Virus record (IMG/VR): IMGVR_UViG_2574180019_000005
Length of the DNA stretch: 8,042 nt
Strand: one strand, 5' to 3'
DNA from: a virus
Taxonomy: Duplodnaviria > Heunggongvirae > Uroviricota > Caudoviricetes
In this document: positions 1-8,042 of the stretch, piece by piece
How the letters are laid out: every line of letters begins with the position of its first letter
Numbering within the stretch: position 1 is the first letter of the stretch
Made by a program: the position numbers and the translations under genes
The notes under the pieces: generated by a model
What the model was told of the DNA's origin: nothing
The model's input: the letters and a program-made list of their open reading frames with translations, nothing else
Databases searched by the model: none

Positions 1-177
1 AGGGGAGGCTTTTGGTGTTTTTCCCTGCCGCTCATCACGTAATTGTTTCACCCATCGCGTCATTGTGGAAAGGCCGACATCCATAGCGCTGGCTGCATCT
101 GCCACGGTGTAATTCTGGTCAACGACCAGTTGAGCGGATTCGCGTTTAAACTCTGCGCTGAAATTTCTTTTTTTCAT
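1..177 (-). CDS. IS911-like OrfA (transposase N-terminal HTH protein), partial; runs off window
   Basis: Mirror copy of the right-end orfA; reverse-strand ATG at 175..177. Translation [59 protein letters not shown] matches IS911 OrfA as I recall it. Confidence 0.8.
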
Positions 178-249
178 TATGGCACCTGTGTTGTTCTGAG
201 GTGAGCATATCACCTCTGTTCAGGTGGCCAAATTCAGTAAACCACTTCA
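1..249 (-). mobile_element. IS3-family (IS911-like) insertion sequence, left-end fragment; IS body continues off the window to the left
   Basis: Bases 1..249 are the exact reverse complement of 7793..8041. The element end is TGAAGTGG (reverse strand, terminal base at 249), a TG-initiated IS3-family terminus, and it carries the start of an orfA reading frame. Confidence 0.8.
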
Positions 250-283
250 ATTCACCCCTACAGAGAGCAAAAGAGAAACGCCG

Positions 284-865
284 ATGAACAACTCATGGTG
301 GCAGGAACTAATGCATTTTTTCCTGCAAGGAATGACACTTAAACAGTTGATTCATATGCTAATCATCCTGATCATATTGATTATTGTTATGCCGGTAAGC
401 GTAAAAGAATGGATAAACCTGCATAGTCCAGAAATCCTTCCTCATTACTGGATGTATTACATCCTGTTGTTTTGCGTTAGCTATGTGCTTAACGGCGTTG
501 TTAATTCCGCTTATCACGCTGTGACTGAAAGAATTGAGGTATTCGCTGCTCAGAAGCGCAAATCTAAAGAAGAAAAATATGTGCAAGATTTGTTTGATTC
601 GTTAACTCTTGGAGAAAGAGCGTATTTGGCATTCGCTGTAGCCGCTAATAACCAGCTACAAACGGAAAAGGGCGCTCATGAATCAATTTCATTGCTCAAA
701 AAAGGACTCCTCGTTCGAAGGCCTCCTGCTGTTGGATATCCTGATACCGACCGTTTCGTTATCCCTGAAAGCTATAGACATGAGTGCTACATTAGGTTTG
801 CCGGGAAGGCAGACAGCCTTATGGATGAACTTATCGCTCAGGATAAGCATGGCAAAAACAAGTAA
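284..865 (+). CDS. sieB: Superinfection exclusion protein B-like membrane protein
   Basis: The ORF-track start at 224 lies inside the IS end; the first ATG in phage DNA is 284, giving 193 aa. Two strongly hydrophobic segments (LIHMLIILIILIIVMPV; YWMYYILLFCVSYVLNGVV). It is convergent with N, the position and size of sieB in lambda and P22. Confidence 0.6.
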   Translation: MNNSWWQELMHFFLQGMTLKQLIHMLIILIILIIVMPVSVKEWINLHSPEILPHYWMYYILLFCVSYVLNGVVNSAYHAVTERIEVFAAQKRKSKEEKYVQDLFDSLTLGERAYLAFAVAANNQLQTEKGAHESISLLKKGLLVRRPPAVGYPDTDRFVIPESYRHECYIRFAGKADSLMDELIAQDKHGKNK

Positions 866-881
866 TTAGCAAATGAATTTA

Positions 882-1154
882 TCATCTCGCCGTCAGTTGT
901 TTTGATTTCCGGTAGCCTGCCGCGTAAAGAGCTACGTTCGGAAGACAAGTTGAACCTTCATATTTTCTGGTCAACGTTGTCAGAGTTATCACTTCTGCTC
1001 TCATTGCTGGTTTGAGCTTGCATTGCAAGACCACTCGTGAAGGGGTTGGCCTGTGTAGCTTGTCGGAGCTGATCGCCTCCTGACTTTGCAGATTTGCGCG
1101 ACGAGCTCTACGGCGAGAAGCTGCGGTGCCTTTAAATTCTGTTTTTCTGGACAT
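882..1154 (-). CDS. N: N-family transcription antitermination protein (P22 gene 24-like)
   Basis: Internal ATG at 1154 with GGAGG 5 nt upstream on the reverse strand. N-terminal arginine-rich motif GTAASRRRARRA; C-terminus LPNVALYAAGYRKSKQLTAR resembles the P22 gp24 C-terminus as recalled. Lies between sieB and nutL/pL as in lambdoid phages. Confidence 0.75.
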   Translation of the reverse strand: MSRKTEFKGTAASRRRARRANLQSQEAISSDKLHRPTPSRVVLQCKLKPAMRAEVITLTTLTRKYEGSTCLPNVALYAAGYRKSKQLTAR

Positions 1155-1265
1155 GGATTCCTCCCGAATAAACTTTGGCGATGCAATCTCGAAGCTCCTC
1201 CTGAGACGGTTGCTTCGGCATTGCATCCCACAGCTTATGTGGTTGGGTGATCTGGCTTTTCAGCC

Positions 1266-1297
1266 ACGTAGTCGAGAGTCGACGTTGTTTAAAGAGC
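1266..1297 (-). promoter_or_regulatory. Candidate nutL (boxA GCTCTTTAAACAA plus boxB-like hairpin GTCGA-CTC-TCGAC)
   Basis: Reverse strand reads GCTCTTTAAACAACGTCGACTCTCGACTACGT. BoxA matches the lambdoid consensus (CGCTCTTA-like). A perfect 5-bp-stem hairpin follows. It sits about 110 nt upstream of N, downstream of the putative pL. Confidence 0.45.
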
Positions 1298-1343
1298 CTG
1301 CCAGTCTGTTCCATTTGGCTTCCAGCGTCCTGCTGACGGTTAA

Positions 1344-1386
1344 ATAGTACGATATGTACTTTACAAGATCAATACAATTTGTTGTA
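1344..1386 (-). promoter_or_regulatory. Candidate pL promoter with overlapping OL operators
   Basis: On the reverse strand: -35 TTGATC (1367..1372), 17-bp spacer, -10 TACTAT (1344..1349). Perfect palindrome AGTACGATATGTACT (1346..1360) overlaps the spacer and -10. A second palindrome TACAA-TTTG-TTGTA lies at 1373..1386. The 11-mer AAAGTACATAT (promoter-relative) is shared with the pR region. Confidence 0.4.
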
Positions 1387-1558
1387 AGTTGGCGTGGTTT
1401 TTTATAACGCTTTGTATTTAATAGTGTTGTTTTTTAGCGTGGATGTATTGCCTCGGCGATGTAAGGAGAGATCAGAATTGCGTGGTTTAGTGGGTTGCAT
1501 CTATTTATTTTTCAATAAATATAATTGGTTATGTGTTTTTAGGTGGGCGAACGTGAGG

Positions 1559-1587
1559 CAAAGAAAACCCGGCGCTGAGGCCGGGTT
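1559..1587 (-). terminator. Intrinsic terminator ending the leftward cI operon
   Basis: Directly after the stop of the 250-aa gene: 6-bp GC stem CCCGGC/GCCGGG (1568..1573 / 1580..1585) with a 6-nt loop, followed on the reverse strand by UUUUCUU (1561..1567). Confidence 0.6.
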
Positions 1588-1590
1588 GTA

Positions 1591-2343
1591 TTATGCTGCA
1601 AGTCTCTTAACCCAAGTCTCTCTTTTGGAGAATGGTAGAACTTGGCTTGATTCATGGAAGAGTAAGGAGAGTTGTTGCATTTGATCACCAATTGCTTCGC
1701 TGTCTATAACAACAAATCTGTTGTTATACTCCTCACTTGAAGCTTTAAGATCAATTAGTTTCCCAAGCAATGAGTAAGCACTATTCCAGCTTCCTCCGTG
1801 TTTCACGCTTGATGTAAAAACGTATTTAGGTATGTCGGTTTTTATTGTTACAGGGACGGTAATTTGATGTCCACTCAAGCCATATACGTTTTCACGAAGA
1901 GAAAGTGCGTCTCTAAGCTCTGTGTGATATAGATAATCAATAACCATACTTTCAAACTTTTCAGCTTGAACTGGCTGATACCAGTCTAACGACAAAGTTG
2001 ATGCGAGTATACCAGCTCTAATTATGTTCGATGTAATCGCACCGACATCCTTTTCTGTTGCCCAAGCAATGATTTCTCCTCGAGCATTGAGTTCTGCGCC
2101 TTCTTTAAGCAGTAATTGTCGTATCTCATCAAGTCGTTTTTTGGTAAGCGAGATCCCTCTTGCCTCCATATTCATTAAGGCATCGCATCTGTCACTAACT
2201 AAATACCTACCATTGACTTCACGGATAAAGGCACCGACATGCTCTCCATCATCACAGTAAGTGAATGGACTGATAATTCTCAAGGTCTTGCCTATTGGAT
2301 GGCATTCGAAACCTAGTTGTGAGATCACTGTTGAGCACATCAT
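1591..2343 (-). CDS. Hypothetical protein (250 aa), distal gene of the cassette at the rex position; candidate defence or exclusion component
   Basis: Long ORF on the same strand as cI. Its ATG (2341..2343) overlaps the stop of the upstream gene in an ATGA arrangement. Followed by a terminator. I recognise no motifs. Confidence 0.75.
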   Translation of the reverse strand: MMCSTVISQLGFECHPIGKTLRIISPFTYCDDGEHVGAFIREVNGRYLVSDRCDALMNMEARGISLTKKRLDEIRQLLLKEGAELNARGEIIAWATEKDVGAITSNIIRAGILASTLSLDWYQPVQAEKFESMVIDYLYHTELRDALSLRENVYGLSGHQITVPVTIKTDIPKYVFTSSVKHGGSWNSAYSLLGKLIDLKASSEEYNNRFVVIDSEAIGDQMQQLSLLFHESSQVLPFSKRETWVKRLAA

Positions 2344-2897
2344 ATTCCAAACCCCATTTGCCCCGACTCATCTTCAAGCGGTAAAGGTATTCTCCCAGAG
2401 TAAGTTATGTTCAGATGTTTACAGAAGTAATTCCAATACCCTACCAGGTCATCTGGGTTTATGTCATCTTCGATTGGAAACGCTATTCTATCACTATAGT
2501 ATCCAGCTTCTTCATAGTATACATGGTAGTGAGCACCGTAAATGATATCTTGGTACTTCGGATGATCGACCTTGTAACTATTCGTGTGTTTGTCAAAGTG
2601 ATAGGTATCTACCGCGAAAACCCTCTTGTTATGATAGAAAGCAATAATATTTATTTTAGGGTAAGAAATCGGGTCATCAGGTTCTGAATCCTGATCTGGT
2701 TTCCATTTCAGTTCAAACTTTAGCCCTTGTATAGGTATACAATCCTCATCCAAGGGGATGATATGGGCTTGTAGCCACATATCAGAGCGACTTGGTTTCT
2801 GTTTCCATTTAACGCCAGAAAAGTTAACTATTTTTTTACAATAAAGTACTTTATCAACTTCTACTTGGCTTGGCTGATAATCATCTATTTTTGCCAA
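2340..2897 (-). CDS. Hypothetical protein (185 aa), proximal gene of the cassette at the rex position; candidate defence or exclusion component
   Basis: ORF begins 40 bp downstream of the cI stop. The first in-frame start is TTG (2895..2897), just after an in-frame TAA; the next ATG is at codon 40. Protein is rich in Asp/Glu/Tyr/His (for example HFDKHTNSYKVDHPKYQDIIYGAHYHVYYEE). Very AT-rich DNA. Confidence 0.7.
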   Translation of the reverse strand: MAKIDDYQPSQVEVDKVLYCKKIVNFSGVKWKQKPSRSDMWLQAHIIPLDEDCIPIQGLKFELKWKPDQDSEPDDPISYPKINIIAFYHNKRVFAVDTYHFDKHTNSYKVDHPKYQDIIYGAHYHVYYEEAGYYSDRIAFPIEDDINPDDLVGYWNYFCKHLNITYSGRIPLPLEDESGQMGFGI

Positions 2898-2936
2898 TGT
2901 TTACCGCCCTGTAAATTGTAGATAAAAGTGGTTTCA

Positions 2937-3596
2937 TCACCCAAACGTCTCTTCAGGCCATTGGCTGGCGATAACTTTCCCCACAACGGAACAACTCTCA
3001 TTGCATGGGATCATTGGGTATTGTGGGTTTAGTGGCTGTAGAAACACCTGACCGCTATCCCTGATCAGTTTCTTGAAGGTAAATTCATCACCACCAAGTC
3101 TGGCTATGCAGAAATCGCCGGGCTCAACAGCTTGCTCAGGGTCAACCAGAATTAACATCCCGTCAGGAAAGCTGGGTTTGGAACCTGTTGGTGCGGTCAT
3201 TGAGTTACCTTCAACCTCAAGCCAGAATGCAGAGTCACTGGCTTTTTTGGTTGTGCTTACCAATCTCTCCGCATCGCCTTTGGTAAAGGTTCTGAGTTCT
3301 GGAGAGAACATCCCAGCCTGAACATGAGAAAAAACAGGGTACTCATATTGTTTTTTAACTGGGGCCGATGAGTATTCGCCAACAGGTGAAAATGTCCCGT
3401 CGTGGTTGAATGATATGTTATCAATACCAAGGTATTTAAACACCACACCAATATCACTAAGAGATGGATGACGAGATCCGCGCAACCAGTGTCCAATCCC
3501 ACCCTGCGTCATACCTAGCTCTTCGGCTAACTTCTCTTGAGTTATGCCGAGCTCTTTCATTCTGGATCTAGCCAGTTCATACCATTTCATTTTCAT
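2937..3596 (-). CDS. cI: Phage repressor cI (LexA/S24 family) with a lambda-type C-terminal domain and a non-lambda N-terminal HTH domain
   Basis: From [20 protein letters not shown] to the C-terminus QWPEETFG the protein matches lambda cI as recalled, including the Ala-Gly autocleavage site (VQAGMF) and the S24 domain. The N-terminal HTH ([23 protein letters not shown]) is different. Start is ambiguous (ATG at 3596 or 3590; the ORF track uses TTG at 3638). Confidence 0.9.
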
Positions 3597-3707
3597 GTCC
3601 TTATTATTACGCTCTGTACTGGAACCATCCATGCACAATGTGTATTTTTACTTGTATTCGCAAAGTACATATTGTATTTTTTTATTCGTGTTTACTATGG
3701 AGGGCAT
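3597..3707. promoter_or_regulatory. OR operator region with candidate pR (and divergent pRM)
   Basis: Candidate pR: -35 TTGTAT (3652..3657), 17-bp spacer, -10 TATTTT (3675..3680), GGAGG 4 nt before the cro ATG. AAAGTACATAT (3662..3672) ends 2 bp before the -10, the same spacing as in the pL candidate. TGTATT occurs three times (3641, 3653, 3673). Confidence 0.45.
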
Positions 3708-3923
3708 ATGAGCAACCTACGAAAATATCGAGAGTCACTGAATATCTCTCAAACAACACTTGCTAAGGCAGTTGGATGCACACAGGGAGCTATCGGACAT
3801 TGGGAATCTGGTCGTCGCTTCCCAGACCTTAAAACATGCCGTGCTCTTGTTGCGTGCCTAAACAAGTTAGGCGCAAAAGTCAGTCTTGATGACGTGTTCC
3901 CGCCGGAACACAAAGCCGCTTAA
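3708..3923 (+). CDS. cro: Cro-like HTH (XRE-family) repressor
   Basis: 71 aa, HTH TQTTLAKAVGCTQGAIGHWESG. Divergent from cI across the operator region with a GGAGG ribosome-binding site. The ORF-track start at 3537 would overlap cI and OR, so I take ATG 3708. Confidence 0.8.
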   Translation: MSNLRKYRESLNISQTTLAKAVGCTQGAIGHWESGRRFPDLKTCRALVACLNKLGAKVSLDDVFPPEHKAA

Positions 3924-3933
3924 TAAGCGGATC

Positions 3934-3966
3934 CGCTCTTTGTAACAACGGACATTCGTCCTACGT
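3934..3966 (+). promoter_or_regulatory. Candidate nutR (boxA CGCTCTTTGTAACAA plus boxB-like hairpin GGAC-ATTC-GTCC)
   Basis: Located just after the cro stop. BoxA and the flanks ACAACG ... CTACGT match the nutL candidate, while the hairpin stem sequence differs. Confidence 0.5.
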
Positions 3967-4064
3967 CGCTGAAAAGCGAGTTCCAAGATATCTGACCAAC
4001 TAAGGCCATATGCGTTTCCACGCATACCTTTCAACTAACTATTCACTATTGGAAATCTTAAGAA

Positions 4065-4361
4065 ATGGAAAGAACAAGTTACAGCAAACTATCACAGCGT
4101 GACGTTGATCGCGCAGAAACAGATTTACTTATCAATCTGTCAGCTATTACCCAGCGCGGTCTGGCAAAGATGATTGGCTGTCATGAATCGAAGATAAGCA
4201 GAACGGACTGGAGATTTATTGCTTCGGTCTTGTGTGCTTTCGGAATGGCATCAGACATCAGTCCGATTAGCAGGGCTTTTAAGTATGCGCTTGATGGACT
4301 CACCAATAAAAAACGCCCGGCGGCAACCGAGCGTTCTGAACAAATCCAGATGGAATTCTGA
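4065..4361 (+). CDS. cII: Transcriptional activator cII (hybrid: lambda-type C-terminus, divergent N-terminal and DNA-binding part)
   Basis: C-terminal LTNKKRPAATERSEQIQMEF matches lambda cII as recalled; the N-terminal two-thirds differ. Position between cro/nutR and O. Confidence 0.85.
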   Translation: MERTSYSKLSQRDVDRAETDLLINLSAITQRGLAKMIGCHESKISRTDWRFIASVLCAFGMASDISPISRAFKYALDGLTNKKRPAATERSEQIQMEF

Positions 4362-4382
4362 GGTCATTACTGGATCAATCCA
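4305..4382 (-). ncRNA. oop: OOP antisense RNA (with terminator to), overlapping the cII 3' end
   Basis: Plus-strand sequence AATAAAAAACGCCCGGCGGCAACCGAGCGTTCTGAACAAATCCAGATGGAATTCTGAGGTCATTACTGGATC is the reverse complement of lambda oop RNA as I recall it, with a few substitutions. The GC hairpin plus U-tract lies at the 3' end (about 4305..4330). Confidence 0.7.
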
Positions 4383-4393
4383 CAGGAGTCATT

Positions 4394-5293
4394 ATGACAA
4401 ATACAGCAAAAATACTCAACTTCTGCAGAGGTAACTTTGCCAAACAGGAGCGTAATGTGGCAGATCTCGATGATGGTTACGCCAGACTATCAAATATGCT
4501 GCTTGAGGCTTATTCAGGCGCAGATCTGACCAAGCGACAGTTTAAAGTGCTGCTTGCCATTCTGCGTAAAACCTATGGATGGAATAAACCAATGGACAGA
4601 ATCACCGATTCTCAACTTAGCGAGATTACAAAGTTACCCGTCAAACGGTGCAATGAAGCCAAGTTAGAACTCGTCAGAATGAATATTATCAAGCAGCAAG
4701 GCGGCATGTTTGGACCAAATAAAAACATCTCAGAATGGTGTATCCCTCAAAACGAGGGAAAATCCCCTAAAACGAGGGATAAAACATCCCTCAAATTGGG
4801 GGATTGCTATCCCTCAAAACAGGGGGACACAAAAGACACTATTACAAAAGAAAAAAGAAAAGATTATTCGTCAGAGAATTCTGGCGAATCCTCTGACCAG
4901 CCAGAAAACGACCTTTCTGTGGTGAAACCGGATGCTGCAATTCAGAGCGGCAGCAAGTGGGGGACAGCAGAAGACCTGACCGCCGCAGAATGGATGTTTG
5001 ACATGGTGAAGACCATCGCGCCATCAGCCAGAAAACCGAATTTTGCAGGGTGGGCTAACGATATCCGCCTGATGCGTGAACGTGACGGACGTAACCATCG
5101 CGACATGTGTGTACTGTTCCGCTGGGCATGCCAGGACAACTTCTGGTCCGGTAACGTGCTGAGCCCGGCCAAACTCCGCGACAAGTGGACCCAGCTCGAA
5201 ATCAACCGTAACAAGCAACAGGCAGGTGTGACAGCCTGCAAACCAAAACTCGACCTGACAAACACTGACTGGATTTACGGGGTGGATTTATGA
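4394..5293 (+). CDS. O: Replication initiation protein O (lambda type)
   Basis: 299 aa, MTNTAKILNF...DWIYGVDL, essentially lambda O as recalled. Contains the ori iterons. Stop overlaps the P start (ATGA). Confidence 0.95.
   Translation: MTNTAKILNFCRGNFAKQERNVADLDDGYARLSNMLLEAYSGADLTKRQFKVLLAILRKTYGWNKPMDRITDSQLSEITKLPVKRCNEAKLELVRMNIIKQQGGMFGPNKNISEWCIPQNEGKSPKTRDKTSLKLGDCYPSKQGDTKDTITKEKRKDYSSENSGESSDQPENDLSVVKPDAAIQSGSKWGTAEDLTAAEWMFDMVKTIAPSARKPNFAGWANDIRLMRERDGRNHRDMCVLFRWACQDNFWSGNVLSPAKLRDKWTQLEINRNKQQAGVTACKPKLDLTNTDWIYGVDL
4742..4870. repeat. ori-lambda: four O-binding iterons followed by an AT-rich unwinding region
   Basis: Iterons ATCCCTCAAAACGAGGGAA (4742), AATCCCCTAAAACGAGGGAT (4761), ATCCCTCAAATTGGGGGAT (4786), ATCCCTCAAAACAGGGGGA (4809), then the A-rich stretch AAAAGACACTATTACAAAAGAAAAAAGAAAAGATTATT. 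Confidence 0.9.
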
Positions 5294-5991
5294 AAAACAT
5301 CGCCGCACAGATGGTTAATTTTGACCGTGAGCAGATGCGTCGGATCGCCAACAACATGCCGGAACAGTACGACGAAAAGCCGCAGGTACAGCAGGTAGCG
5401 CAGATCATCAACGGTGTGTTCAGCCAGTTACTGGCAACTTTCCCGGCGAGTCTGGCTAACCGTGACCAGAACGAACTGAACGAAATCCGCCGCCAGTGGG
5501 TTCTGGCTTTCCGGGAAAACGGGATCACCACAATGGAACAGGTTAACGCAGGAATGCGCGTAGCCCGTCGGCAGAATCGACCATTTCTGCCATCACCCGG
5601 GCAGTTTGTTGCATGGTGCCGGGAAGAAGCATCCGTTATCGCCGGACTGCCAAACGTCAGCGAGCTGGTTGATATGGTTTACGAGTATTGCCGGAAGCGA
5701 GGCCTGTATCCGGATGCAGAGTCTTATCCGTGGAAATCGAACGCGCACTACTGGCTGGTTACCAACCTGTACCAGAACATGCGGGCCAATGCGCTGACTG
5801 ACGCGGAATTACGACGCAAGGCTGCCGATGAACTGACCTGTATGACAGCGCGAATTAACCGTGGTGAGACGATACCTGAACCAGTAAAACAACTTCCTGT
5901 CATGGGCGGCAGACCTCTAAATCGTGTTCAGGCGCTGGCGAAGATCGCAGAAATTAAAGCTAAGTTAGGACTGAAAGGAGCAAGTGTATGA
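5290..5991 (+). CDS. P: Replication protein P (DnaB helicase loader, lambda type)
   Basis: 233 aa, MKNIAAQMVNFDREQMRRIANNMPEQYDEKPQ..., matches lambda P as recalled. Translationally coupled to O and ren. Confidence 0.95.
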   Translation: MKNIAAQMVNFDREQMRRIANNMPEQYDEKPQVQQVAQIINGVFSQLLATFPASLANRDQNELNEIRRQWVLAFRENGITTMEQVNAGMRVARRQNRPFLPSPGQFVAWCREEASVIAGLPNVSELVDMVYEYCRKRGLYPDAESYPWKSNAHYWLVTNLYQNMRANALTDAELRRKAADELTCMTARINRGETIPEPVKQLPVMGGRPLNRVQALAKIAEIKAKLGLKGASV

Positions 5992-6278
5992 CGGGCAAAG
6001 AGGCAATTATTCATTACCTGGGGACGCATAATAGCTTCTGTGCGCCGGACGTTGCCGCGCTAACAGGCGCAACAGTAACCAGCATAAATCAGGCCGCGGC
6101 TAAAATGGCACGGGCAGGTCTTCTGGTTATCGAAGGTAAGGTCTGGCGAACGGTGTATTACCGGTTTGCTACCAAGGAAGAACGGGAAGGAAAGATGAGC
6201 ACGAACCTGATTTTTAAGGAGTGTCGCCAGAGTGCCACGATGAAACGGATATTGGCGGTATATGGAGTTAAAAGATGA
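5988..6278 (+). CDS. ren: Ren protein (lambda type)
   Basis: 96 aa, MTGKEAIIHYLGTHNSFCAPDVAALTGATVTSINQAAAKMARAG..., matches lambda Ren as recalled. Start overlaps the P stop. Confidence 0.85.
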   Translation: MTGKEAIIHYLGTHNSFCAPDVAALTGATVTSINQAAAKMARAGLLVIEGKVWRTVYYRFATKEEREGKMSTNLIFKECRQSATMKRILAVYGVKR

Positions 6279-6303
6279 CCATCTACATCACTGAGCTAAT
6301 AAC

Positions 6304-6335
6304 AGGCCTGCAGGTAATCGCAGGCCTTTTTATTT
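6304..6335 (+). terminator. Intrinsic terminator between ren and ninB (tR2-like)
   Basis: 8-bp stem AGGCCTGC/GCAGGCCT (6304..6311 / 6320..6327), 8-nt loop, followed by TTTTTATTT. Confidence 0.7.
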
Positions 6336-6351
6336 GGGGGAGAGGGAAGTC

Positions 6352-6792
6352 ATGAAAAAACTAACCTTTGAAATTCGATCTCCGGCACATCAGCAAAACG
6401 CTATTCACGCAGTACAGCAAATCCTTCCAGACCCAACCAAACCAATCGTAGTAACCATTCAGGAACGCAACCGCAGCTTAGACCAAAACAGGAAGCTATG
6501 GGCCTGCTTAGGTGACGTCTCTCGTCAGGTTGAATGGCATGGTCGCTGGCTGGATGCAGAAAGCTGGAAGTGTGTGTTTACCGCAGCATTAAAGCAGCAG
6601 GATGTTGTTCCTAACCTTGCCGGGAATGGCTTTGTGGTAATAGGCCAGTCAACCAGCAGGATGCGTGTAAGCGAATTTGCGGAGCTATTAGAGCTTATAC
6701 AGGCATTCGGTACAGAGCGTGGCGTTAAGTGGTCAGACGAAGCGCGACTGGCTCTCGAATGGAAAGCGCGATGGGGAGATCGGGCTGCATGA
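6352..6792 (+). CDS. ninB: NinB (Orf) recombination mediator protein
   Basis: 146 aa, MKKLTFEIRSPAHQQNAIHAVQQILPDPTKPIVVTIQERNRSLDQNRKLWACLGD..., matches lambda NinB as recalled. Ribosome-binding site GAGGGAAG upstream of ATG 6352. Confidence 0.9.
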   Translation: MKKLTFEIRSPAHQQNAIHAVQQILPDPTKPIVVTIQERNRSLDQNRKLWACLGDVSRQVEWHGRWLDAESWKCVFTAALKQQDVVPNLAGNGFVVIGQSTSRMRVSEFAELLELIQAFGTERGVKWSDEARLALEWKARWGDRAA

Positions 6793-7316
6793 CTATCAAA
6801 TCAAATACGCCAGCACACGACAAGGACTGCTGGCAAACGCCGCTTTGGCTTTTTGATGCACTGGATATTGAGTTTGGATTCTGGCTGGATTCGGCAGCGA
6901 GCGACAAAAATGCTCTGTGCGCTCACTGGCTAACTGAGGACGACGACGCGCTCAATTCTGAGTGGGTAAGCCACGGTGCAATCTGGAATAACCCACCGTA
7001 CAGCAATATCAGGCCGTGGGTGGAAAAAGCCGCTGAGCAGTGTATACAACAGCGACAGACGGTAGTGATGCTTGTGCCAGAGGATATGTCTGTCGGATGG
7101 TTCAGCAAGGCTCTGGAGAGTGTTGACGAAGTTCGTATTATCACTGATGGACGGATTAATTTTATCGAACCATCGACAGGGCTGGAGAAGAAGGGAAACA
7201 GCAAAGGCTCCATGCTGCTGATTTGGCGACCGTTCATCAGTCCTCGACGGATGTTTACTACCGTATCCAAAGCGGCATTGATGGCGATCGGGCAGGGCGT
7301 CAGGAGGGCTGCATGA
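6789..7316 (+). CDS. Phage-type DNA N6-adenine methyltransferase
   Basis: 175 aa. Catalytic motif IV NPPY (WNNPPYSN), typical of amino-methyltransferases. ATG overlaps the ninB stop and the stop overlaps the ninE start. Sits where lambdoid prophages carry the small phage Dam-type methylase. Confidence 0.8.
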
Positions 7317-7489
7317 GACGACAGCGACGAAGCATCACCGACATAATCTGCGAAAACTGCAAATACCTTCCAACGAAACGCTCCAGAAATAAACGCAAGC
7401 TAATCCCAAAAGAATCTGACGTAAAAACCTTCAATTACACAGCCCACCTGTGGGATATCCGGTGGCTAAGATATCGTGCGAGGAAATGA
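7313..7489 (+). CDS. ninE: NinE protein
   Basis: 58 aa, [58 protein letters not shown], near-identical to lambda NinE as recalled. Confidence 0.85.
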
Positions 7490-7491
7490 CA

Positions 7492-7896
7492 ATGGATTAT
7501 TCACAGTTAAGTGATTTTGAAATTAACAGAATGGTAGGAGACATAATTTTTAAAGGCCTTTGGGCAAGTAAACCGGAAACATCAGGGAATAACACCAACA
7601 AATGGTATTACGGAAATGCTGATACAACTTTTGAGCCATTAAATCATTTGCCTGACTACTGCAATGATCCGAGCGCTTCATGGCCGATTATTGAGAAATA
7701 CAGGATTTCTATCTTAGACCAGTTAACTGAATGGTGTGTGGATGCAAAAGGCGTAAGCCCAATATTTGATACCAGACCTCTCCGCGCCGCCATGAAGTGG
7801 TTTACTGAATTTGGCCACCTGAACAGAGGTGATATGCTCACCTCAGAACAACACAGGTGCCATAATGAAAAAAAGAAATTTCAGCGCAGAGTTTAA
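7492..7896 (+). pseudogene. nin-region ORF of unknown function, interrupted by IS insertion at 7792/7793 (native part 7492..7792, tail read from IS DNA)
   Basis: ATG 7492 with GAGGA 7 nt upstream. The reading frame continues across the IS terminus TGAAGTGG at 7793, so the last 34 codons are IS-derived. Confidence 0.5.
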
Positions 7897-8042
7897 ACGC
7901 GAATCCGCTCAACTGGTCGTTGACCAGAATTACACCGTGGCAGATGCAGCCAGCGCTATGGATGTCGGCCTTTCCACAATGACGCGATGGGTGAAACAAT
8001 TACGTGATGAGCGGCAGGGAAAAACACCAAAAGCCTCCCCTA
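7793..8042 (+). mobile_element. IS3-family (IS911-like) insertion sequence, left-end fragment; IS body continues off the window to the right
   Basis: Terminus TGAAGTGGTTTACTGAATTTGGCCACC... followed by the orfA start. 7793..8041 is the exact inverted copy of 1..249. Confidence 0.8.
7865..8042 (+). CDS. IS911-like OrfA (transposase N-terminal HTH protein), partial; runs off window
   Basis: ATG 7865. [59 protein letters not shown]. Confidence 0.8.

Follow-up and report, generated by a model that had tools for sequence, protein, structure and literature searches.

The DNA analysed here (the window, 8,042 nucleotides (nt) of virus record IMGVR_UViG_2574180019_000005) is, from its map of open reading frames (ORFs) and its Pfam matches, the part of a lambdoid prophage that holds its immunity and early-regulatory functions. 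It encodes an antiterminator N and carries two N-utilization (nut) sites, nutL in the pL leader between pL and N, and nutR between cro and cII, before tR1 (Table 1). The question addressed in the present report is which hairpin of these sites is boxB, the element to which N would bind. An earlier note on the same DNA had taken the first hairpin after boxA for boxB at each site, and was left with the puzzle that one N would have to recognise two dissimilar hairpins.

Table 1. Coordinates of the nut sites, their component parts and the surrounding genes and signals in the window (aa, amino acids).
Feature	Position	Strand	Remarks
sieB	284-865	+	
N antiterminator gene, 90 aa	882-1154	-	Pfam PF25694 N_peptide, E = 1.5e-32; phrog_271 'anti-termination protein N-like'
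Complete nutL (boxA, spacer hairpin, CUACG, boxB)	1249-1299	-	VT2-Sakai AP000422 'putative N-utilization leftward'
nutL boxB (proposed N-binding hairpin)	1253-1266	-	UGGCU-GAAA-AGCCA; RNA written as UGGCUGAAAAGCCA
CUACG linker between the nutL hairpins	1267-1271	-	single-stranded; invariant
nutL spacer stem-loop (first hairpin)	1271-1283	-	GUCGA-CUC-UCGAC; RNA written as GUCGACUCUCGAC
nutL boxA	1285-1297	-	GCUCUUUAAACAA; rrn-type CUUUA consensus
pL promoter	1344-1372	-	-35 TTGATC, 17-nt spacer, -10 TACTAT; overlaps operator-like repeats; read from sequence
Two genes at the rexAB position	1591-2343 and 2340-2897	-	
cI	2937-3596	-	
pR promoter	3652-3680	+	-35 TTGTAT, 17-nt spacer, -10 TATTTT; read from sequence
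cro, upstream of nutR	3708-3923	+	Pfam HTH_3, E = 4e-12; annotated Cro in homologous phages
Complete nutR (boxA, spacer hairpin, CUACG, boxB)	3933-3983	+	VT2-Sakai 'putative N-utilization rightward'
nutR boxA	3934-3948	+	CGCUCUUUGUAACAA
nutR spacer stem-loop (first hairpin)	3950-3961	+	GGAC-AUUC-GUCC; RNA written as GGACAUUCGUCC
nutR boxB (proposed N-binding hairpin)	3966-3979	+	UCGCU-GAAA-AGCGA; RNA written as UCGCUGAAAAGCGA
tR1-like region downstream of nutR	4007-4032	+	hairpin AUGCGU-UUCC-ACGCAU, then CCUUUC
cII	4065-4361	+	
O, P, ren, ninB, Dam-type methylase, ninE, ninX			in this order after cII

Results

The two nut sites and their hairpins

The strings from which the dissimilarity had been noticed, GCTCTTTAAACAACGTCGACTCTCGACTACGT at 1266-1297 (minus strand) and GCTCTTTGTAACAACGGACATTCGTCCTACGT at 3935-3966 (plus strand), are both present exactly. 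The composite pattern boxA-AACAACG-N10/11-CTACGT is found at each of them and nowhere else in the window (two matches against 0.00 expected from 200 shuffles), which confirms that boxA and the flanks are common to both sites. Promoter and gene positions agree with the annotations of phage VT2-Sakai that these are nutL and nutR of the window's own N, as the note had proposed. A boxA consensus lies 5' of the hairpin in nutL (GGCUCUUUA) as well as in nutR (CGCUCUUUG); the boxA of rrn operons is UGCUCUUUA and that of lambda is CGCUCUUA (PMC2724277).

The first hairpins do differ in the way described earlier, with a stem of 5 base pairs and a CUC loop in nutL and a stem of 4 base pairs and an AUUC loop in nutR. 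Their folding energies are -4.9 and -5.2 kcal/mol, respectively, and as isolated 31-mers they are unremarkable (z = -1.2 and -1.4). At both sites a second hairpin begins at the last T of CTACGT, directly 3' of CUACG, and these second hairpins fall just outside the span of 1266-3966 considered in the note, one on each side. They are more stable than the first (nutL -7.1 and nutR -6.7 kcal/mol; z = -2.7 and -2.2), they share the same GAAA loop, which is of the GNRA form, and four of their five stem pairs are identical, the only difference being a compensatory G:C/C:G swap at the second stem pair. The 20-mer CTACGT-SGCTGAAAAGCS-AG accordingly has two matches in the window, with 0 expected. Both sites have a boxA and an equivalent GNRA stem-loop, both are at the expected positions, and the adjacent N carries an arginine-rich motif. 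There is hence no paradox, because the likely boxB hairpins adjoin the dissimilar ones and match each other. An Rfam search of the window at E <= 1 returned no nut or boxB family, and gave four sub-threshold chance matches elsewhere.

The arginine-rich motif is N-terminal in N (MSRKTEFKGTAASRRRARRANLQS; also delimited as GTAASRRRARRA). N is 98.9% identical to the N of VT2-Sakai and 41.7% identical to that of H-19B, and RefSeq annotates the same 273-nt coding sequence in Escherichia coli ATCC 25922. A search of the PDB sequences with N gave no match even at E <= 10, hence no structure-based inference is made on the motif.

Two further features overlap nutL. A terminator-like match on the plus strand at 1271-1283 (GTCGAGAGTCGAC followed by GTTGTTTAAA) arises from the nutL spacer hairpin read in antisense, with the complement of boxA after it, and is no independent feature. 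RefSeq lists a 60-aa ORF at 1132-1314 (minus strand) as a hypothetical protein; it covers the whole of nutL and extends over the start of N.

Comparison across relatives

The comparison comprised 166 loci that encode an N relative together with nutL, most of them also with nutR, plus individual phage records. A search for relatives with N itself had returned 98-100% identical loci only, which are uninformative for covariation; diversity was added by a nutR-anchored pattern scan, in which the spacer sequence was required, and by hand-picked phage records. Seven types of N arginine-rich motif were resolved, two of which were completed by hand. A different pattern scan, CTACGNNGCTGN{1,2}AAAGC, matched 120 loci, essentially all of them chance matches in unrelated taxa with neither boxA nor spacer hairpin, and was discarded.

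The second hairpin stands directly after CUACG in H-19B, VT2-Sakai, POCJ13, epsilon34, S137 and more than 150 viral contigs. Its loop-length class is the same at nutL and nutR in seven of the seven N types and follows the arginine-rich motif. GAAA or GCAA tetraloops are found with five types (...RRRARRANLQS, ...RRRERRAALQN, ...RRRAHRAELQS, ...RRREARKHLQA and ...RRRERRAHMQS), whereas in the two ...RRRERLKAKAL types the loop is the pentaloop GACAA at nutR, and at nutL either GACAA (H-19B type) or C-GUCAA-C (Oslo type).

The first hairpin shows the reverse behaviour. At nutR the hairpin GGAC-AUUC-GUCC is present with all seven N types, whether the boxB loop is GAAA, GCAA or GACAA, and about 190 nutR sites share these same 12 nt while boxA and the downstream flanks vary; this invariance is partly one of ascertainment, because the pattern scan required that very sequence. 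At nutL, loci of a single N type retain the stem, but their loop reads CUC, AUC, ACAC, ACUC, GCAC or AUGAA. Other N relatives have the unrelated nutL spacer stems GAUUC/GAAUC and GGUGA/UCACC, the former of which occurs with both GACAA-type and GAAA-type N. As a candidate for boxB the first hairpin thus lacks the expected equivalence: within the window its two copies have different stems and loops of different size and sequence, and there is no tracking of N.

Published reagents point in the same direction. In a study of H-19B, the reverse complement of oligonucleotide RS663, described as 'antisense to nutR spacer of H-19B', is CACAATGGACATTCGTCCTACG, and that of RS664, 'antisense to nutR boxB', is TACGTCGCTGACAAAGCGAGTCCC (PMC3526286, Muteeb et al. 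2012, supplement). The first hairpin of the window's nutR is contained in the former, and this hairpin with its linker, GGACATTCGTCCTACG, is identical in H-19B. The choice of the first hairpins as boxB is therefore not upheld, since the H-19B reagents call the first element 'spacer' and the next 'boxB', and N tracks the loop of the second.

ACAAYG and CUACG flank the spacer hairpin in all sites, and the CUACG linker is unchanged in 18 of 18 distinct aligned sites and in 31 of 31 listed site variants. There is no recognisable boxA at nutL of H-19B or at nutL and nutR of epsilon34 (GGCGGUGAAUAUACAACG; CACCACUUCCAACAACG), where ACAAYG and CUACG are kept. Among the linear elements of this nut family, ACAAYG and CUACG are invariant and boxA is not.

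Some individual phages deviate in smaller ways. In POCJ13 and in locus L175 one nut site has a GCAA loop and the other GAAA, and the coexistence of the two in one phage implies that those N types tolerate either base at the second GNRA position. SF6 has the only variant of the nutR spacer hairpin that was seen, with loop AAUC in place of AUUC and an unchanged stem (GGACAAUCGUCC). In Oslo (around 4860-4900 and 2376-2426) and 103203_sal5, whose N is of the SRARRRERLKAKAL type, nutL and nutR of the same phage have unlike boxB elements: nutL reads GCUC-C-GUCAA-C-GAGC, in which a C/C pair flanks the loop GUCAA, and nutR reads UCGCU-GACAA-GGCGA, with a U:G closing pair. The nutL arrangement resembles the C-GACAA-C of P22 nutR. 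This pair of boxB elements is the nearest case to the paradox that had been raised for the window.

Covariation of both stems

For the counting of base pairs, the arms were anchored on the invariant CAAYG and CUACG. Standard pairs filled 50 of 50 cells in boxB and 52 of 52 in the spacer stem, compared with 23-60% when the 3' arm was slid (15-60% for the spacer stem). The outermost boxB pair occurs as U:A, A:U, C:G and G:C, that is, as all four Watson-Crick types, and the four unrelated spacer stems (GUCGA, GAUUC, GGUGA and GGAC) all pair while their loops are free. A covariance model for which nutL sequences alone, eight of them, were used recovers exactly two sites in the window, namely nutL with 77 bits (E = 3.6e-21) and nutR with 39.4 bits (E = 2.3e-10); the match that ranks after them has E = 0.56.

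An Infernal alignment covered 81 sites, of which 32 are distinct; pairing is found in all of its 300 cells (100%), and seven of ten pairs change on both sides; the covariation score was 0.472 against 0.111 for shuffled alignments (0 of 500), and slid registers were 19-46% paired. A MAFFT alignment of 18 nut sites was dropped from the pair counts, since the tetraloop/pentaloop gap was placed at the 3' end and the nutR spacer arm was shifted; the anchor-based counts and the Infernal alignment replaced it. Since pairing and covariation hold for both stems, the two hairpins are each real structures, but a conserved loop that correlates with N is found in the second alone.

The surrounding prophage region

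The positions of the pL and pR promoters rest on a reading of the sequence and on homology to the VT2-Sakai annotation: pL maps exactly onto the 'putative major leftward promoter' and pR onto the 'putative major rightward promoter' of that phage. Neither was listed by a sigma-70 consensus scan of the window, because each scores 8/12 and the cut-off was 9/12. For the tR1-like region, itself putative, the position follows from homology to a feature that the VT2-Sakai record names 'putative rho dependent terminator for pR transcript'.

The chromosome of ATCC 25922 is 100% identical to the window over 1-7795. When the segments 860-1600 and 3600-4400 were compared with the phage collection, phages ev017, ev207 and PhiR57_1 were 100% identical over both, and VT2-Sakai and many Shiga toxin (Stx) phages about 93-95%. 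The ends of the window, 1-249 and 7793-8041, form a perfect inverted repeat of 249 nt that carries the start of the orfA of an IS3-family transposase (Pfam HTH_Tnp_1), presumably IS911-like. In ATCC 25922 the match ends at 7795 and ninX goes on intact, and the left insertion sequence alone is present, between ral and sieB; for these reasons the right end of the window is either a second copy of the insertion sequence in another strain or an assembly artefact.

The two genes at the position of lambda rexAB overlap, and encode a DUF1828 protein and a DUF6978-like one, the latter below the Pfam cut-off. They lie between cI and the terminator of the pRM transcript (1566-1587), and weakly match both components of the candidate defence system PDC-M24 in PADLOC, in the same order (B, E = 4.7e-10; A, E = 4.8e-4). 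The pair may be an exclusion or defence cassette expressed in the lysogen.

Discussion

We regard it as very probable, from the sequence comparisons above, that both sites are nut sites of the H-19B type, with the order boxA (ending in ACAAYG), stem-loop, CUACG and boxB, and that N most likely recognises the GAAA hairpin. The dissimilar first hairpins would then be spacer stem-loops, an element already described for H-19B-type sites, and the architecture as such is known. Three ways out of the paradox had been offered: that N reads shape and flanks, that one site is mosaic and non-cognate, or that the hairpins had been wrongly assigned. Our results favor the third, insofar that boxB does lie elsewhere in the leaders of homologous phages. 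The other two are not needed, because the second hairpins match in their loop and in four of five pairs, with a compensatory change in the fifth.

According to this reading, and by analogy with lambda, P22 and H-19B, the pL and pR transcripts would carry the nut RNA, and NusB/S10 could bind the rrn-like boxA. The spacer hairpin would fold and thereby shorten the distance between boxA/ACAAYG and CUACG/boxB, with NusA (and Rho) contacting the region, and the arginine-rich helix of N (residues about 9-22, GTAASRRRARRANL) would dock on the GAAA loop of boxB. The resulting complex would make RNA polymerase resistant to the tL and tR1 terminators. For this particular N, both the binding and the antitermination are what we infer. 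In 2000, Neely and Friedman reportedly described the dyad symmetry of the H-19B spacer as a 'reducer' that joins the flanking linear elements; mutations in a single arm are said to inactivate the site and compensatory changes to restore it, while deletion is said to have little effect. The natural variation at nutL, where the stem covaries and the loop is free, fits such a picture. Since only pairing would matter for the spacer stems, those of nutL and nutR can be unrelated in sequence.

However, some caution is warranted, as several observations weigh against the assignment of the second hairpin to N. In naked RNA, boxA (GCUCUUU) pairs with the loop and 3' arm of boxB (AAAAGC) and encloses the spacer hairpin. 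This alternative is favored over the two-hairpin fold by 2.2 kcal/mol at nutL (-14.2 vs -12.0) and by 1.1 kcal/mol at nutR (-12.8 vs -11.7), and at equilibrium the pair probability of the nutL boxB is about 0.36. Moreover, the sites are related by descent, so that locus counts overstate the number of independent events and the seven N types are the fairer unit, and the Infernal alignment was fitted to the structure of its model. The function of the 90-aa type of N rests on homology (41.7% identity to H-19B N). Finally, the nutR spacer hairpin, with the same 12 nt in all N types, is far more conserved than a purely passive 'reducer' needs, and suggests an additional sequence-specific role.

With regard to the alternative fold, the helix between boxA and boxB is lost in relatives with AUGCUCUUU or AAGCUCUUU, which are single-base changes beside boxA, and in sites that have no boxA, and most family members have the two-hairpin fold as their structure of lowest energy. 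We rejected the helix as a conserved, regulated alternative on the ground that single-base variants in relatives abolish it; because it disappears there, it would be a by-product of two conserved motifs. The base that precedes GCUCUUU (G in nutL, C in nutR) matches the pair swap in boxB.

The explanation that survives best beside the assignment of boxB to the second hairpin concerns the extra conservation at nutR. The spacer hairpin, at least that of nutR, might be a sequence-specific platform that presents ACAUUC to the S1/KH portion of NusA or forms part of a Rho utilisation site, a suggestion that we think possible but rather doubtful. The same 12 nt are seen in all N types, although the retrieval of most of the 190 or so sites by that sequence inflates this invariance. 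The hexamer ACAUUC, comprising part of the 5' arm and the loop, recurs in the lambda nutR spacer CACAUUCCA, in which AUU is critical for NusA binding (PMC2724277), and the H-19B nutR spacer is protected both by Rho and by N with NusA (PMC3526286). Against it, the spacer hairpins of nutL have unrelated stems and loops, most of them without AUU, and in H-19B the spacer reportedly regains function on compensatory stem changes and can be deleted with little effect. Such a role would refine the reading of the first hairpins as spacers and does not contradict it.

A mosaic origin, in which one nut site is non-cognate (e.g. nutR having arrived with the cro-cII module of a phage with another N) and one site alone works, is highly improbable. 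The nutR module (spacer hairpin, CUACG and the stem UCGCU/AGCGA) is nearly unchanged among phages with different N, which does fit an exchange of cro-cII. Yet the loop class of boxB agrees between nutL and nutR in every N type, both loops being GAAA in the window; where nutL is of the GAAA type, nutR has GAAA or GCAA, and where nutL is of a pentaloop type, nutR has GACAA.

We give slightly less credence still to the idea that the first hairpins are boxB after all, and that N recognises their shape together with the conserved flanks (ACAACG and CUACGU) and not the sequence of stem or loop. It draws on the invariance of ACAAYG and CUACG in all sites, with a hairpin always between them. However, the size and sequence of the first loop vary freely within one N type (CUC, AUC, ACAC, ACUC, GCAC), an identical first hairpin at nutR serves N proteins with clearly different arginine-rich motifs, these hairpins have no GNRA-like loop, and 5 nt downstream of them comes a perfectly matched hairpin of the GNRA kind. 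The work on H-19B also calls the sequence of the first hairpin spacer and puts N on the next hairpin (PMC3526286).

Least likely of all is that nutL is conserved on account of the 60-aa ORF that covers it (RefSeq WP_000438342.1 in ATCC 25922; phrog_3137, E = 1.5e-47), since nutR, which lies beyond the stop codon of cro in non-coding DNA, has the same architecture, and both hairpins persist in relatives whose spacer loop region is 12 nt long, where the ORF either lacks a start codon (49 loci) or is reduced by a frameshift to 26 aa (L092); the loss of start or frame makes it probably a spurious gene call and not the cause of the conservation.

The window itself holds no new biology. What remains is only mildly novel, namely the presumed natural pair of specificities formed by GNRA tetraloop and GACAA, the rest being already annotated or used experimentally in close relatives. 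Tentatively, and on sequence grounds, the RRRARRANLQS class of N may read a true GNRA tetraloop (GAAA or GCAA) with no extruded base, whereas its RRRERLKAKAL relatives may read GACAA on an otherwise identical nutR. If this is true, an insertion or deletion of one nucleotide in the loop, together with a few substitutions in the motif, would constitute a natural and possibly orthogonal specificity switch among the antiterminators of Stx phages. The extruded loop base is a peptide contact in P22 and serves in NusA-dependent complex assembly in lambda, and owing to these roles a tetraloop boxB could have a different dependence on host factors.

The seven N motif types set against the loop class at both nut sites provide a compact and testable map of N/boxB specificity classes, and show that boxB stems in nature covary freely but keep to one loop class. 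The results also bear on annotation. In phages of the H-19B/VT2-Sakai/epsilon34 type, many Shiga toxin prophages included, the first hairpin after boxA is not boxB. Genome scans of the lambda style ('boxA + 8 nt + hairpin'), as well as designs for N-peptide binding or antitermination, would choose the wrong element.

Comparison with known systems

Lambda has the same order of boxA, spacer and boxB, with N on boxB and NusA on the spacer (PMC2724277, PMC3526286). It differs in having an unstructured spacer of 8-9 nt, a GAAAA or GAAGA pentaloop on the boxB stem GCCCU/AGGGC, and an N with no detectable sequence similarity to the one described here, as judged from the lack of a PDB sequence match. 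NusB/S10 bind boxA, and on recognition by N the boxB loop of lambda is said, from work by Legault and co-workers in 1998, to take a GNRA fold. The boxA of the window, GCUCUUUAA(A)CAA, resembles the boxA-spacer sequence of rrn, UGCUCUUUAACAA (PMC2724277). The earlier note had held that the two boxB elements of lambda are identical, which is not the case: nutL and nutR of lambda have spacers that are unlike in sequence and in length, and they also differ at boxB loop position 9 (PMC2724277).

The boxB stems of P22 differ as well, the two annotated elements having GCGCU/AGCGC and CCGC/GCGG with the same GACAA loop. From the loops of lambda and the stems of P22 it follows that identity of the stem is not a requirement even in the classical systems. 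P22 resembles the window in its boxA (GCUCUUUA) followed by a boxB with a GNRA-like GACAA loop, and the C-terminus of its N (gp24) is shared. It differs in a spacer of 7-9 nt without stem-loop or CUACG, in a pentaloop in place of the tetraloop, and in an N terminus and arginine-rich motif that are unrelated in sequence. The second hairpin of H-19B nutL, GCGCUGACAAAGCGC, recurs unchanged as the boxB inside the nutL annotated for P22.

In epsilon34 (EU570103.1) the element annotated as 'putative NutR - boxB', TCGCTGAAAAGCGA, equals window 3966-3979 and is preceded by the same spacer hairpin and linker as in the window. Its nutR has no consensus boxA (CACCACUUCC), its N is of a 120-aa type with motif GRRRERRAALQN, and the stem of its nutL boxB is CGGCU/AGCCG. 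VT2-Sakai (Sp5; AP000422.1) is closest, with a nearly identical N and a nutL string that is identical over the region read; its nutR is essentially alike, with single-base differences at two places, upstream of boxA and 3' of boxB. The nut annotations of VT2-Sakai extend from boxA into the second hairpin, and boxA, spacer and boxB are not subdivided in that record.

In H-19B, N has been assigned to the boxB loop and NusA to the spacer, with reference to earlier work (PMC3526286). The likeness to the window comprises the order of boxA region, spacer stem-loop, CUACG and boxB, the nutR spacer hairpin with linker (GGACAUUCGUCCUACGU) and the boxB stem UCGCU/AGCGA, which are identical base for base, and a homologous N with a common MxRxTxFKG N-terminus and CLPNVALYAAGYRKSKQLTAR C-terminus. 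The differences are a GACAA pentaloop at nutR boxB in place of GAAA, a change of one nucleotide; an N of 127 aa with motif RRRERLKAKAL, as compared with 90 aa and RRRARRANLQS; the nutL spacer stem GAUUC/GAAUC in place of GUCGA/UCGAC; and the lack of a recognisable boxA at nutL, whereas the window has a consensus, rrn-like boxA at both sites. H-19B-type nut sites are expected to need host factors less and to be independent of boxA, NusB and S10. This independence may not extend to the window, because it has kept a consensus boxA at nutL as well as nutR.

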